Virus record (IMG/VR): IMGVR_UViG_2660238499_000008
DNA length: 14,754 bases
Direction: 5' to 3' (one strand)
Source: a virus
Taxonomy: Duplodnaviria; Heunggongvirae; Uroviricota; Caudoviricetes
Position 1 is the first letter of the stretch; each line of letters starts with the position of its first letter. The notes under the pieces were generated by a model that worked only from the letters and a program-made list of their open reading frames with translations, searched no databases and was not told the origin of the DNA. Of the stretch, positions 6,078-14,754 are shown piece by piece. The translations under genes were made by a program, and so were the position numbers.

Positions 6078-6419
6078 ATGATTACTAAAAATTTCCGACT
6101 GAATGCGCTGGCGAATAAGTATGCGTCGGCACTGTATAACCACATTACCTCCACCAGCGGCGGTGACTATTTCATGGTTGATGCGGACGGCCTCGCCGTC
6201 CGTGTGGAAATCGTCAATGGAGTAAAAGGCTTTCGCAGCCTGATCGATAGCTACACACTGGCAGCCATGAAAGTGTCCTACCCGCAGTGGGAAACCGTGG
6301 GGATCGCGCTTCTTGAGCGTTGCGTCACTAAGGACGGATTAACTGACGTCGGGCGCGAGATATGGCAAAGCATGGTTAAAGACATGGGCGCGACCGTGGC
6401 AGGGGGCAACCATGCGTAA
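6078..6419 (+). CDS. Hypothetical protein
   Basis: 113-aa ORF with strong RBS (gaggggg); its stop overlaps the primase start (ATGCGTAA). Confidence 0.6.
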   Translation: MITKNFRLNALANKYASALYNHITSTSGGDYFMVDADGLAVRVEIVNGVKGFRSLIDSYTLAAMKVSYPQWETVGIALLERCVTKDGLTDVGREIWQSMVKDMGATVAGGNHA

Positions 6420-9177
6420 TATCGATCTTATCCGCGAAGTGACCAGTGCCGCCGCCGGGCGCTGGCCTTATGTGCTGGCTGGATTGTCTATCGACGTGCC
6501 TGATTCATCGCGCCGCCATTCTCCATGCCCTGCATGTGGTGGAAAAGACCGTTTCAGATTCGACGACAACGGGCGCGGTAGCTTTATCTGCAATCAGTGT
6601 GGCGCTGGTGACGGTTTAGACCTGATTAAGAAGGTGAACAACTGCGACACTACGGAGGCGGCACAGCTTGCCGCTGATGTGCTGGGTATTGATTACCGGG
6701 CAGCGCAAACCGACCCGGTGGCAGCGAGCCATAGAAGAGAGCAACTGGAAGCTGACCGCCAGCAGCGTGAGCAGGAGCGCCAGAAACAGGCAGCAGAGGA
6801 TGCAGAGCAGCGAAGGGCTACGTTTGCCCGTCTGTATGCCGGAATGCGCCAGAGTGCCACACAGGGAGAATCTGATTACCTGCAATCAAAAGGGCTGACC
6901 GGGTTTAACTATCCGGTTATGCCGGATGGTTCGTTATTGCTGGAGCTGGTGGACGAATCCGGCGCAGTGGCAGCAGCGCAAACCATTACACCGCAGGGAG
7001 AGAAGCGACTCCTGACAGGTTCAGCAAAGCGCGGGGCATATCACGCCGTAAACGCACCAGAACAGCCGCAGAGCGTATTAATTGCCGAGGGGCTGGCGAC
7101 GGCCCTGTCCGTTCACCTGATGCGCCCGGACGCGCTTACAGTGGCGGCAATTGACGCCGGGAACCTGATCCACGTTGCCGGAGTAATGCGCCGGAAACAC
7201 CCGCAGTCGCAAATTATCATTGCCGCAGATAACGACCACCAGCAGGACGAACAGGCGAACACGGGCAAAGATGCCGCAGAGAAAGCCGCCTTATCCGTGG
7301 CTGGCTGGGTGGCGCTGCCGCCGACAGACTACAAAGCCGACTGGGACGACTACCGCCAGCAAAACGGGCTGGAAGTCGCTACGGCTGCGTTTAACGATTC
7401 GATGTACCAGATTCAGGGGGAAGCCGTGAAACCGCGATTGCAAGCCATTGAGGGCGGTAAAACTGACCATCCAGAGAAAGACCCACTAAAACCCCACATT
7501 GAGAGCCGAAAAGATGGCGTTTTCTGGGTAACGCCGAAGGTGGACAAGGAAAGCGGGGAGATCATCAACGCTGAAAGCTGGTTATGTTCACCGCTGGAGG
7601 TTATCGGCACGGGACGCGACGACAAAGATCAGTATCTTATTATCTCATGGCTGGCATTTGGTGCAGGCATACCGACAACAGCGGCTATCCCGCTGGCTGA
7701 TATTGGCGAGCGTGAAGGCTGGCGCACCCTGAAAGCTGGTGGCGTCAACGTCACAACGAAAAACAGCCTACGGGCGATTCTTGCCGACTGGTTACAGCGA
7801 AGCGGCTCGCGTGAATTGTGGCGCGTTGCTCATGCTACAGGCTGGCAGTGCGGGGCATACATCATGCCGGACGGGGAAATCATCGGCACACCTGAGCGGC
7901 CTGTTTTGTTCAGCGGGCGCAGTTCAGCCGCTGCCGGGTATACCGTAGCAGGAACGTCGGAAAGCTGGCGTAACAGTGTTGCGCGGCTGGCATACGGTAA
8001 TTACGCGATGATGACAGGCATCGCCGCAGCACTGGCAGCGCCATTAATCGGGGTGGCAGATCGTGACGGATTCGGGATTCATTTTTATGAGCAATCGAGC
8101 GCCGGGAAAACAACCACGCAGAACGTGGCGAGCAGTCTATACGGCAACCCTGATGCCTTGCGCCTGACGTGGTACGGGACGGCGCTGGGGCTGATAAACG
8201 AGGCCGCCGCCCACAATGACGGGCTGATGCCACTGGATGAAGTCGGACAGGGCGCTGACCCGATAAGCGTTTCTCAGTCTGCCTATGCCCTGTTTAACGG
8301 CGTGGGGAAATTGCAGGGAGCAAAGGAAGGAGGCAACCGGGATCTGAAACGCTGGCGCACCGTGGCAATCAGCACCGGGGAAGTGGACTTAGAAACCTTC
8401 ATCGCCACCGCCGGACGCAAGACCAAAGCCGGGCAACTGGTGCGCTTGCTGAATATCCCGTTAAGTAAGGCGGTGCGCTTTCATGAACACCAGACAGGGA
8501 AAGAACACGCCGACGCGCTGAAAGATGCTTATCAGCACCATCATGGCGCTGCCGGGAGGGAGTGGATCAGATGGCTTTCAGACCACCAGCAACAGGCGAT
8601 TGATGTCGTTCGTGAGTGTGAAGCCCGCTGGCGCAGTCTAATCCCTGCCGACTATGGGGAACAGGTTCACCGTGTAGGGGCAAGATTTGCCATTCTGGAG
8701 GCCGCTTTACTGATGGGTGGCGTGGTTACTGGCTGGGATGCTCAAACGTGCCGGGATGCGATACAGCACGCCTATAACGCATGGCTAAAAGAGTTCGGCA
8801 CGGGGAACAAAGAGCACCAGCAGATCATCGAGCAGGCGGAGGCATTTTTAAATGCCTATGGCCTGAGTCGATTCGCGCCGCTGCCTTACGACCCCGCCAG
8901 CCTGCCGATTCATAATCTGGCTGGATACAGGCAGCGCGGAAATCATGACGATTCACCGATAACGTTTTACACGTTCCCCGACACTTTCGATAAGGATATT
9001 GCTAAGGGGTTTAACAGGCAGCAGGTGGCCCGCGTCCTGAAAGAATCGGGGATGCTTACCCCTTCAGCAGACGGAAAAAAATTTCAGAGGAAAAGCCCGC
9101 GCATTCAGGGGAGGCAGATTAACGTTTACGTTTTGCAATTCCTGCCGGATGGGGAGGAAAGCCAGCCAGGGCAATAA
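6412..9177 (+). CDS. Replicative primase-helicase (P4 alpha-like): N-terminal zinc ribbon, TOPRIM domain, C-terminal Walker-A/B NTPase
   Basis: 921-aa ORF. Zinc-ribbon CPACGG...FICNQCG near the N-terminus. TOPRIM-like acidic motifs (IAEGLATA; IIAADNDHQQDE). Walker A-like SSAGKTT and Walker B-like LMPLDEV in the C-terminal half. Immediately followed by an iteron array. Confidence 0.9.
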   Translation: MRNIDLIREVTSAAAGRWPYVLAGLSIDVPDSSRRHSPCPACGGKDRFRFDDNGRGSFICNQCGAGDGLDLIKKVNNCDTTEAAQLAADVLGIDYRAAQTDPVAASHRREQLEADRQQREQERQKQAAEDAEQRRATFARLYAGMRQSATQGESDYLQSKGLTGFNYPVMPDGSLLLELVDESGAVAAAQTITPQGEKRLLTGSAKRGAYHAVNAPEQPQSVLIAEGLATALSVHLMRPDALTVAAIDAGNLIHVAGVMRRKHPQSQIIIAADNDHQQDEQANTGKDAAEKAALSVAGWVALPPTDYKADWDDYRQQNGLEVATAAFNDSMYQIQGEAVKPRLQAIEGGKTDHPEKDPLKPHIESRKDGVFWVTPKVDKESGEIINAESWLCSPLEVIGTGRDDKDQYLIISWLAFGAGIPTTAAIPLADIGEREGWRTLKAGGVNVTTKNSLRAILADWLQRSGSRELWRVAHATGWQCGAYIMPDGEIIGTPERPVLFSGRSSAAAGYTVAGTSESWRNSVARLAYGNYAMMTGIAAALAAPLIGVADRDGFGIHFYEQSSAGKTTTQNVASSLYGNPDALRLTWYGTALGLINEAAAHNDGLMPLDEVGQGADPISVSQSAYALFNGVGKLQGAKEGGNRDLKRWRTVAISTGEVDLETFIATAGRKTKAGQLVRLLNIPLSKAVRFHEHQTGKEHADALKDAYQHHHGAAGREWIRWLSDHQQQAIDVVRECEARWRSLIPADYGEQVHRVGARFAILEAALLMGGVVTGWDAQTCRDAIQHAYNAWLKEFGTGNKEHQQIIEQAEAFLNAYGLSRFAPLPYDPASLPIHNLAGYRQRGNHDDSPITFYTFPDTFDKDIAKGFNRQQVARVLKESGMLTPSADGKKFQRKSPRIQGRQINVYVLQFLPDGEESQPGQ

Positions 9178-12485: not shown

Positions 12486-12716
12486 AAGCAAAACGCCCGC
12501 ACGGGGCGTCAAGGAACGGGATAGACTTCTGCGACAATTTGCATTCGCCGCCAATATAGCAAGCCGTCCACATCAAGCAATAAACTATCACCGGGAGGGG
12601 GAGGCCAAATCTCTGCAACCCTGAGCCTTAAGGACTGCCCGCCCCATCGTTTTTTTATACCCGCGAAAAATGAAATTTAATCCGGGCGTGTTTCATCCTT
12701 CCAGAGGGTATGACGT

Positions 12717-12902
12717 ATGACACCACGCGAAATAGCCTTATTGACCATCGCCAAACTTGAGCACGGAGGCCACCAGCTTACACTGGCAGATCAACGGGAG
12801 ATAGAACGCTCAGTTAATGCCGATATAGCCCGGCGCGACAGGTTCCGCGAAATGATGCGAGCACCTGCCTACCAGTGGAAGAAGCCAGCGCCGCGCAGGT
12901 AG
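12717..12902 (+). CDS. Hypothetical small basic protein
   Basis: 61-aa ORF (MTPREIALLTIAKLEHGG...); weak RBS; preceded by a T7 run at about 12646-12652. No family recognised. Confidence 0.45.
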   Translation: MTPREIALLTIAKLEHGGHQLTLADQREIERSVNADIARRDRFREMMRAPAYQWKKPAPRR

Positions 12903-13134
12903 ATATGGGATTATTCCACATGTAACTATACGAGCAATCAGCCCATTAGCTGCCTGCGTGGGAAAGGCACCACCCCGGCGGAAAACTCAGGCGGCTTGCA
13001 TGGTTACAATGAATTGCTATTACAGGCCAGAGAGTCTGATAATCCTGAGCAGGCCGAGATCCACAATTTCCTGATGCTGGATATTGAACGCCGGGTTTAC
13101 GACCTGAGCCGCATCAACGGCAGATTGCAGGCTA

Positions 13135-13494
13135 TTAACTGACCCGCATGTATTCACCTGATATTGCGTTATCAGCGCCGCCATTATCGCGCACAACGGC
13201 ACATTGACCGGGTAAACCGTAGCGAACGACCGTTGCGTTAGTTTTACCGCCACGCTTTACCTGACGAGATTCATACACTGTCACACGTTCCAGCAGCCCC
13301 CCGGCAACCATGCTTTCAAGAGTTCGCCGGGTGGATTCGAGCGGGTGGCGCTTATCGAACGACACCATGCCATGAAGAAGGTAGGCCACGCCCGACACAT
13401 CGAACGGCGGCGCACCAATCTCACCTGTCACCCATTCGAGGTTATCCGGCTCAAAGTAGCTGAGTATCTCTTTTTTGCGGCTGGTCATTCTCAT
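13135..13494 (-). CDS. Hypothetical protein, convergent to the rest of the element; possible winged-helix-like segment
   Basis: 119-aa ORF, the only convincing minus-strand gene. RBS aaggaa upstream of the ATG. Segment HPLESTRRTLESMVAGGLLERV is reminiscent of a recognition helix/wing, which is speculative. Confidence 0.5.
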   Translation of the reverse strand: MRMTSRKKEILSYFEPDNLEWVTGEIGAPPFDVSGVAYLLHGMVSFDKRHPLESTRRTLESMVAGGLLERVTVYESRQVKRGGKTNATVVRYGLPGQCAVVRDNGGADNAISGEYMRVS

Positions 13495-13742
13495 GGCTGG
13501 CTGATTCCTTATTGTGGGATAGCGGTATCATACAATAAGGCGCAAAAGATAAGAGGCCAGAACAGCAAGCATGAGAGCATAAAATGAGCAGCCAAAGACA
13601 GCACCTCAAAATACCGTGTACACAAGGGTGTACCTACTTAGAAAACGCATTACAAGGAATCCAGTAACCACGCGGCCTAGAGACTCCTACTCAATAAACA
13701 GATTCAGACTCGTAACGCCAATTCTTACTTTTCAGCCTTCAC

Positions 13743-13778
13743 AAATGCCGCCCACTCAAACAGAGCGGCATTTTTCTT
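13743..13778 (+). terminator. Putative intrinsic terminator (8-bp stem AATGCCGC/GCGGCATT, about 13-nt loop, then TTTTTCTT)
   Basis: Inverted repeat 13744-13751 / 13765-13772 followed directly by a T-run. Lies about 150 bp upstream of dinD; the loop is larger than typical, so confidence is moderate. Confidence 0.45.
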
Positions 13779-13868
13779 CCCCGCAACTTTCAATTCTGTT
13801 TTGCGTGCCTGCTCCAGATTTTGCGATGTCTTTTTGCCCAGCACACTGAGAACGTGAGACACTCACAA

Positions 13869-13884
13869 CTGTATATAAATACAG
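13869..13884 (+). promoter_or_regulatory. LexA operator (SOS box) CTGTATATAAATACAG of dinD
   Basis: Perfect CTGT-N8-ACAG match to the LexA consensus with an AT-rich centre, 46 bp upstream of the dinD start codon. Confidence 0.88.
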
Positions 13885-13929
13885 TTACAGATTTACTTTC
13901 TTTGCAATCGATATCACATGGAGTGGGCA

Positions 13930-14754
13930 ATGAACGAACATCATCAACCTTTTGAAGAAATACGGCATTATGGCACTGAAGGGCAAGAATTTTGGTCAGC
14001 GAGAGAATTGGCACCGTTACTGGATTATCGGGACTGGCGCAATTTTCAAAAGGTACTTGCCCGCGCGACTCAAGCGTGCGAAGCCAGCAATCAAGCTGCA
14101 TCTGACCATTTCGTTGAAACCACCAAAATGGTTGTATTAGGTTCAGGGGCTCAACGAGAACTTGAAGATGTTCATCTCTCCCGCTATGCCTGTTACCTGG
14201 TAGTACAAAACGGCGACCCTGCGAAACCGGTTATTGCGGCAGGACAAACTTATTTTGCTATCCAGACCCGACGGCAGGAGCTGGCTGACGATGAAGCTTT
14301 CAGGCAACTTCGTGAAGACGAAAAGCGTCTTTTTCTGAGAAATGAATTGAAAGAACATAACAAACAATTAGTTGAGGCAGCGCAGCAAGCTGGGGTAGCG
14401 ACAGCTATCGATTTCGCCATATTTCAGAATCATGGTTACCGGGGGCTGTATGGTGGATTAGATCAGAAAGCCATCCATCAGCGGAAGGGGCTGAAAAAGA
14501 GTCAGAAGATCCTGGATCATATGGGTTCAACAGAACTGGCGGCTAATCTCTTTCGAGCTACCCAAACAGAAGAAAAACTTAAGCGGGATGGCGTGAATTC
14601 AAAACAGCAAGCTAACACCACACACTTTGACGTAGGTCGCAAGGTGAGGCAAACCATTCAGGAACTTGGCGGAACCATGCCTGAGGAGTTGCCGACCCCG
14701 CAGGTCAGCATTAAGCAGTTGGAAAACAGTGTAAAAATTACAGAGAAAAAATAG
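13930..14754 (+). CDS. dinD: DNA-damage-inducible protein D (DinD), core chromosomal SOS gene
   Basis: 274-aa ORF from ATG 13930 (RBS ggag 6 nt upstream; the track ORF starts 4 codons earlier at 13918). N-terminus MNEHHQPFEEIRHYGTEGQEFWSARELAPLLDYRDWRNF matches my recollection of Escherichia coli DinD. Preceded by a consensus LexA box. Stop codon is the last 3 nt of the window. Confidence 0.88.
   Translation: MNEHHQPFEEIRHYGTEGQEFWSARELAPLLDYRDWRNFQKVLARATQACEASNQAASDHFVETTKMVVLGSGAQRELEDVHLSRYACYLVVQNGDPAKPVIAAGQTYFAIQTRRQELADDEAFRQLREDEKRLFLRNELKEHNKQLVEAAQQAGVATAIDFAIFQNHGYRGLYGGLDQKAIHQRKGLKKSQKILDHMGSTELAANLFRATQTEEKLKRDGVNSKQQANTTHFDVGRKVRQTIQELGGTMPEELPTPQVSIKQLENSVKITEKK

Follow-up and report, generated by a model that had tools for sequence, protein, structure and literature searches.

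The interval 13495-13929 of the window (the whole stretch of 14,754 nucleotides that was analysed) very probably, at roughly 85%, represents the attR junction of a Gram-negative phage-inducible chromosomal island (PICI), whose P4-type integrase has the last codons of yicC as its target. In the proposed mechanism the integrase would insert the island into these codons by strand exchange within the core CAGATTCA (13699-13706), and the left end of the island, as seen in its relatives, would bring a synonymous yicC tail, GAATATCGAGTAA, together with a terminator of its own; since a replacement tail is supplied in this way, yicC stays intact. The P arm (13495-13698) contains the leader that precedes the last island gene, a GTGTAC dyad as putative integrase arm site and a candidate core-proximal site. 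To the right of the core lie two leftover bases of the yicC tail, followed by the unaltered native DNA with the yicC terminator, the LexA-controlled dinD promoter and dinD itself.

Position of the junction and the island behind it

Island-free E. coli show the gene order yicC, 220 bp, dinD, while in the window dinD is preceded by island DNA and not by yicC, which bears out the sequence-only reading in that an element separates the two genes. The junction was searched by BLAST in a set of 5,426 complete E. coli genomes. The dinD side of the window is present in ~4,700 of them, and ~4,200 island-free genomes match the window solely from 13708 onward, with a few matching from 13699; the junction between island and chromosome was therefore placed at 13699-13708, inside the stretch of about 13495 to 13740 that had been proposed from the letters of the sequence. 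Island-free strains did not contain the sequence through 13135-13917, the presence of which would have meant that the junction lies elsewhere. The match of an island-free strain begins at the final base of yicC, and the segment 13708-13935, covered by ~4,430 genomes, is 100% identical to island-free strain FDAARGOS_944. Coordinates of the features are collected in Table 1.

Table 1. Features of the window that are discussed in the text
Feature	Position	Strand	Basis or remark
Integrase, P4-type heterobivalent tyrosine recombinase, 419 aa	1..1260	+	Pfam
PICI primase/replicase (pri-rep), Zn_Ribbon_Prim + Toprim_3 + DUF927	6412..9177	+	Pfam
Last island gene, 119-aa conserved hypothetical protein	13135..13494	-	Transcribed leftward, away from dinD
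15-nt inverted repeat (imperfect) within the 119-aa gene leader, overlapping its Shine-Dalgarno	13507..13540	-	
GTGTACAC-aagg-GTGTAC dyad; candidate pair of arm-type integrase sites in the attR P arm	13616..13633	+	
Conserved A-rich block AGAAAACGCATTA of the P arm	13640..13652	+	Conserved columns in an alignment of 14 P arms
CTACTCAATAAA, island side abutting the core; candidate C core-type integrase site	13687..13698	+	Constant in all E. coli attR copies (BLAST)
Common core CAGATTCA (yicC codons Gln-Ile-Gln); probable strand-exchange region, AGATTCA at 13700-13706	13699..13706	+	
GA, remnant of the displaced 13-nt yicC tail GAACATTGAATAA	13707..13708	+	Alignment with attB and full-length attR copies
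Native yicC-dinD intergenic DNA	13709..13929	+	Identity to FDAARGOS_944 over 13708-13935
Native intrinsic terminator of yicC, now at the island right edge	13743..13782	+	9-bp stem, 13-nt loop, T-run
LexA operator of dinD	13867..13886 (core 13869-13884)	+	Perfect CTGT-N8-ACAG palindrome
dinD (DNA-damage-inducible protein D), 274 aa	13930..14754	+	Pfam Bro-N; annotated dinD in matching genomes

The integrase is composed of the Arm-DNA-bind_3 (residues 4-90), Phage_int_M and Phage_integrase domains (Pfam) and, as expected of a PICI, is located at the left end in the same orientation as the island genes. Downstream of it lie genes for AntA, an Ash/Icd-like protein, the Toprim-DUF927 primase and SSB together with small unknown genes, and every long ORF is on the + strand save the last one. 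In relatives the annotation of the primase is either 'phage/plasmid primase, P4 family' or 'TOPRIM and DUF927'. The distance from the int start to attR amounts to 13.7 kb, within the ~8-15 kb of PICIs, and the 3' end of yicC with its core CAGATTCA constitutes a dedicated chromosomal attachment site; it was reported that prophages never use a PICI attachment site (Fillol-Salom, 2018; PMC6092414). Capsid, tail and lysis/structural families were not detected in the window by family searches including Pfam, PHROG and NCBIfam, in which several ORFs stayed without assignment. A 71-aa ORF at 2206-2421, in the alpA position, occupies the place where relatives have an annotated 'helix-turn-helix transcriptional regulator', and gave no Pfam or NCBIfam match, even at Pfam E = 10. 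The window attR arm is carried by ~351 of the 5,426 genomes; the best genome of this collection covers 74% of the window at 96% identity and none holds the whole of it. The element is a new mosaic member of a described family of phage satellites at an already published site.

The 119-aa product of the last island gene has 536 homologues across Enterobacterales, none of them named (search of 5.8 billion proteins), and no Pfam, PHROG or NCBIfam match. The inverted repeat in its leader, kept in strain D5, gives a marginal fold as minus-strand RNA (-19.4 kcal/mol, z = -1.9) and may serve as an operator or as a translational hairpin; an Rfam search of 12500-14754 at E <= 1 returned no RNA family. 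The end of this gene is overlapped by a convergent fragment (12903-13142), which is just the C-terminal third of a PRiA4_ORF3-family gene that relatives possess in full length (180 aa). The right-end module built of PRiA4_ORF3, the 119-aa gene and the leader repeat was also observed on islands located elsewhere in chromosomes (L044, L050), which have a different att arm with ATGTGTATAG repeats; cargo and integration modules thus reassort.

Attachment core and restoration of yicC

The core CAGATTCA was found at both attL and attR in seven element pairs as well as in attB. The bacterial site reads ...GAG CAGATTCA GAACATTGAATAA CTCG... and encodes the YicC C-terminus QIQNIE followed by the stop codon. 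The window reaches attR only, hence its partner site is described here from relatives of the island, in which attL reads ...GAG CAGATTCA GAATATCGAGTAA GCTATC..., with synonymous codons and unchanged amino acids. The attL sites of seven related islands consist of ...GAGCAGATTCA and a replacement tail that closes with the stop codon of yicC (six have GAATATCGAGTAA, EcCIRM13514 has AAATGTGGAGTAA), and in the cases examined a strong terminator (-15 kcal/mol, z = -4.2) stands after this tail. Their attR sites are built of the P arm, CAGATTCA and the displaced tail; that of the window is ...CTACTCAATAAA CAGATTCA GA CTCGTAAC.... 

The common block of attP and attB is CAGATTCAGAA in window-type islands and only GAGCAGATTCA in EcCIRM13514, and CAGATTCA alone is shared without change by attP and attB in either case. 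Strain D5 has a G-to-A marker at core position 3 that keeps with the P side, and its position 12 is of the bacterial type, which would confine strand exchange to core positions 4-11. The island-side sequence CTACTCAATAAA shows a weak dyad symmetry with TATCGAG of the P' side, as deduced from sequence, and the resulting dyad, CTCAATA-N13-TATCGAG, hints at a 7-bp overlap centred on AGATTCA.

Two PICIs at this gene have been listed, EcCIRM13514 of E. coli O145:H28 RM13514 at 'yicC-dinD' with the core GAGCAGATTCAA, and CfCIP10159 of Citrobacter freundii at 'yicC-yicG' with the core ATCGAGTAAG (Fillol-Salom et al., 2018, ISME J, PMC6092414 Table S1). EcCIRM13514 shares the yicC-dinD site with the window island, its published core includes CAGATTCA and its integrase is 86% identical in protein and 79% in DNA. 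Both have GTGTAC repeats in the P arm, and EcCIRM13514 has them in both arms. At its attL (gcgcgagCAGATTCAaaatgtggagtaaGCT) yicC is restored with a tail differing from that of window-type relatives, and at its attR (caatgagCAGATTCAacatcgaataaCTCG) the displaced tail is short by 2 nt, compared with 11 nt in the window. Outside int and the attR/dinD segment there is no detectable DNA similarity between the two islands; unlike the window, EcCIRM13514 carries a different primase and Rha, ProQ/FinO and PerC genes.

A wider likeness exists to islands of P4-family integrases in tRNA and tmRNA genes, a principle described for the Islander database (PMC4383910), where the 3' end of the target is likewise split, a replacement 3' end is supplied and the displaced fragment is left at the far end, by a heterobivalent integrase with an arm-binding domain and arm-site repeats. 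What distinguishes the window island is the protein-coding target, the synonymous replacement with its own terminator and the systematically shortened displaced fragment. Satellite phage P4 has the P4-type integrase domains and an Ash/Icd-like gene in common with the window, and relatives have a primase annotated to the P4 family; the att site of P4 is different, and psu, sid, delta and the P4 alpha-type primase-helicase were not detected in the window by family searches. PICIs and P4 are treated as distinct (Fillol-Salom, 2018; PMC6092414).

The P arm and the dinD side of the junction

The sequence-only reading had described a 6-bp-stem hairpin at 13618-13633, and of this claim the sequence, GTACAC-aagg-GTGTAC, is present as described, while the structure did not stand: its fold does not stand out from chance (z = -0.2; an equally good fold was reached by 70-76 of 200 shuffles) and the motif is conserved as sequence. 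As GTGTACAC is palindromic, the supposed stem can be equally read as two direct copies of GTGTAC, 12 nt apart. GTGTAC occurs six times in the window, three of them within 13616-13633, and a GGTGTACAC-N4-GTGTAC module with further degenerate copies is found again in the P' arm, immediately upstream of int, as was seen in S43, EcCIRM13514 and a metagenome attP-like junction. When 14 diverged P arms belonging to several genera were aligned, 13 retained the dyad, and the neighbouring sequence varied. Judged from sequence, the arm-binding domain of the integrase and the repeated arm-type motifs in both arms are those of a heterobivalent att site, and the dyad probably represents arm-type integrase-binding sites; the A-rich block beside it may be an accessory or bending-protein site. 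It is very unlikely that the repeat acts instead as a nucleic-acid hairpin, for example as a minus-strand terminator shielding the 119-aa gene from inward transcription. A consensus scan does classify it as terminator-like on the minus strand, with the 6-bp stem followed by ACGGTATTTT; however, apart from a fold like that of shuffled sequence, the same motif occurs as direct repeats with the identical 12-nt spacing in the opposite att arm beside int, it is the sequence itself, beyond pairing, that is conserved across genera, and the island integrase has an arm-DNA-binding domain.

Two loci carry this arm in other contexts. In the metagenome contig L012 (CYGL01001218.1, reverse strand ~5297) the arrangement P arm - CAGATTCAGAATATCGAATAA - P' arm joins the right and left ends of an island, with the displaced tail in full length, and represents either an excised circle (attP) or two tandem islands. 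Shimwellia pseudoproteus (L023, reverse strand ~1919) has, after the P arm and core, DNA resembling a ColE1-type plasmid origin region; this copy may be plasmid-borne, or it may stem from a rearrangement or a chimeric assembly.

On the chromosomal side, the terminator and the LexA box noted earlier upstream of dinD were both confirmed. The former, given originally as 13743-13778, turned out to be the native terminator of yicC, which in island-free genomes begins 34 nt past the yicC stop codon. Its predicted stem is formed by AAATGCCGC and GCGGCATTT (13743-13751 and 13765-13773) and is followed by TTTTTCTTC, as in an intrinsic terminator, with a fold of -12.4 kcal/mol (z = -4.1) that none of 200 shuffles equalled; a simple consensus scan missed it because the loop limit of the scan is 8 nt and the loop has 13 nt. 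The LexA box, CTGTATATAAATACAG, lies within the 20-mer AACTGTATATAAATACAGTT and is the sole CTGT-N8-ACAG match in the 14.7-kb window, where 0.17 would be expected by chance. The predicted operator is identical in island-free genomes, in accordance with a LexA-regulated promoter, and its start is 161 bp away from the seam. The 222 bp that separate the junction from the start codon of dinD consist wholly of native DNA, with 100% identity to an island-free genome, and the window DinD shows 99.6% protein identity to chromosomal DinD. From this sequence, dinD regulation is expected to be unchanged by the island.

The vicinity of an SOS promoter had raised the idea that the placement is functionally meaningful, or that transcripts read through from the island. 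That the island position is coupled to SOS, with transcripts running into dinD or with the LexA/SOS neighbourhood influencing island genes, is highly improbable. The junction is indeed merely 161 bp away from the LexA box, the majority of island genes point toward dinD, and some related islands carry a dinD paralogue of their own beside attR, a hint that the islands and this gene family are connected. Yet the same integrase/att module is present, where hosts lack dinD, at yicC-yicG and at other flanks: in Pectobacterium, Enterobacter and further hosts the P arm and core adjoin unrelated flanks, and in dinD-less hosts they adjoin yicG directly; since the target is the 3' end of yicC and is used also in these hosts, the adjacency of dinD is a by-product. 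The unaltered dinD upstream region, the absence of any LexA-type box in the window other than that of dinD and the lack of such a box at the island-borne paralogue speak equally against a functional placement. Read-through is likewise unsupported, as the native yicC terminator stands between the island and the LexA box, and the last island gene is convergent to the island operon and leads away from dinD; transcription from the island would thus be predicted to end before dinD.

Several observations concern dinD itself. The island-borne paralogues (L004:14341-15165; L013, L017, L020 of Pectobacterium and L022 of P. fontis) lie immediately inside attR, so that those genomes contain two dinD genes in tandem, and are related to chromosomal dinD by 85% protein and 78% DNA identity, with no LexA box upstream. 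P. fontis (L022) possesses a 1.7-kb remnant consisting of yicC, the dinD-like gene and attR. ST131-type E. coli (L040:4001-4285) are without dinD and have yicG as the direct downstream neighbour of yicC; the native tail of this yicC, GAATATCGAGTAA + GC, equals the island replacement tail, and 577 genomes contain an exact match to these 35 nt. In dinD-bearing strains (L001:2501-3664) a ~1.16-kb dinD block takes the place of 77 nt, its start coinciding exactly with the stop codon of yicC. The island-borne paralogues and the dinD-less ST131 strains gave rise to the idea that chromosomal dinD is a remnant of an old island, which found no support, as there is no P-arm or att remnant downstream of chromosomal dinD. 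In SEV1 (L005:17393-18613) and H26 an IS element of the ISKox3 family lies between attR and dinD, within the intergenic DNA of yicC and dinD, and would separate dinD from its native upstream DNA in those strains.

Shortened yicC tails at attR and in empty sites

At the exact seam of the window attR, 11 nt are missing from the displaced 13-nt yicC tail, a variant present also in MB46 and two metagenome contigs. The 8-bp core CAGATTCA is intact at the window attR, next to this shortened tail, and at the attL of relatives; in view of the loss beside the core, the window island may no longer excise normally. Copies of attR were gathered from complete genomes, metagenomes and other genera. Beside dinD in E. 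coli, the full 13-nt tail was found in 4 of 25 copies and a shortened tail in 21, with every length from -2 to -12 represented, frequencies that are not representative because additional E. coli examples were picked for differing match lengths. The 15 scorable copies with other flanks comprise two of full length (one being the attP-like L012), six at -2 and seven at -4. The left breakpoint is always right after the 8-bp core, and no deletion goes beyond the stop codon (window 13706-13709; L002-L007, L011-L018, L027-L036, L041-L051). What is established here is limited to the existence of the deletion series and its fixed left anchor. Opposite to attR, attL was normal in each of the seven pairs inspected, and all 21 full-coverage rows sampled from 300 carrier genomes span 102-103 nt of the 102-nt attL query.

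The same truncations occur in island-free genomes. With a probe of the empty site, the yicC tail was found complete in ~4,185 genomes and shortened in seven, and all seven are free of the island and have the identical breakpoint. Four of them (CEC13091 and three similar; L037:1200-1215) read CAGATTCA/ATAA, with the slash marking the breakpoint, and lack 9 nt, leaving a yicC of 855 nt; one (CEC03102, L038) reads CAGATTCA/AA, lacks 11 nt and has yicC annotated as a pseudogene; two (13E0780 and 13E0725; L039) read CAGATTCA/ACATTGAATAA and lack 2 nt, which results in a frameshift. It is possible that islands with a short attR excised by exchange within CAGATTCA and left the short tail in yicC, and another possibility is direct damage of empty attB by the integrase; in both cases the deletions are linked to the site of recombination.

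Tentatively, and at somewhat less than even odds, the seam 13706/13707 is taken for the cleavage position of the integrase, from which one-sided nested deletions of 2-12 nt arise at attR and occasionally at empty attB. Abortive cleavage and rejoining would remove nucleotides from one side only, the deletions would stay roughly within the footprint of the B' core-type site, and the heritable footprints would be the short displaced tails of most islands and the truncated or frameshifted yicC of a few island-free strains. An alternative explanation is that the 11-nt loss at the seam and the 2-12-nt losses of relatives are neutral decay of a useless gene fragment without any link to the integrase. 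The displaced yicC tail is non-coding once the island is integrated, and selection on yicC protects attL, which alone predicts the asymmetry between attL and attR. Neutral decay is nevertheless unlikely. Among 24 E. coli attR copies aligned over 171 nt, the deletions concentrate in the 13-nt tail, where 20 of the 24 are affected, with only P-arm lineage-block differences and one 1-nt indel elsewhere; the tail lengths differ inside each of three near-identical P-arm lineages, which makes the deletions recurrent; and the anchored truncations reach the functional yicC of island-free genomes. It is the fixed anchor, the upper bound of length and the scars in empty sites that decay leaves unexplained and that disfavour it.

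Other models were considered and rejected. Replication slippage finds at most 1-3 nt of junction microhomology and no tandem repeat in the tail. A displaced cleavage predicts attL lengthened by the same number of nucleotides, and all attL inspected were normal. A crossover in ATCGAGTAA, the distal part of the yicC tail, with a shortened tail on attP cannot yield the -10, -11 and -12 variants and also conflicts with the short common block of attP and attB in EcCIRM13514. No fully satisfactory strand-level mechanism was derived for cleavage at the seam either, the literature searches gave nothing relevant on anchored deletions at attR, and the pattern is recorded as unexplained.

The deletion series bears also on the published cores of this site. 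CfCIP10159, like EcCIRM13514, has yicC as target gene, in a host without dinD, and its published core is unlike that of EcCIRM13514; it equals the distal half of the 21-nt yicC tail CAGATTCA-GAAT-ATCGAGTAA. As judged for CfCIP10159 by its published core, this suggests that a single 21-nt block underlies the two 'cores', a 4-nt attR deletion having divided it into two parts.

With regard to the neighbouring SOS gene, dinD is left untouched and the finding, in the form in which it was first posed, is largely ordinary. What is gained is an att site resolved to the base, with its core, its synonymous tail and own terminator, and an arm-site dyad in both arms. If the cleavage-position reading of the seam is true, it would account for the publication of two unlike cores for a single att site, and a tyrosine recombinase would have left in these deletions a natural mutational signature, to be compared with the short deletions that depend on topoisomerase I. 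Deletions made by the integrase would offer a cheap sequence read-out of past island activity and a case of natural recombinase-induced mutagenesis.
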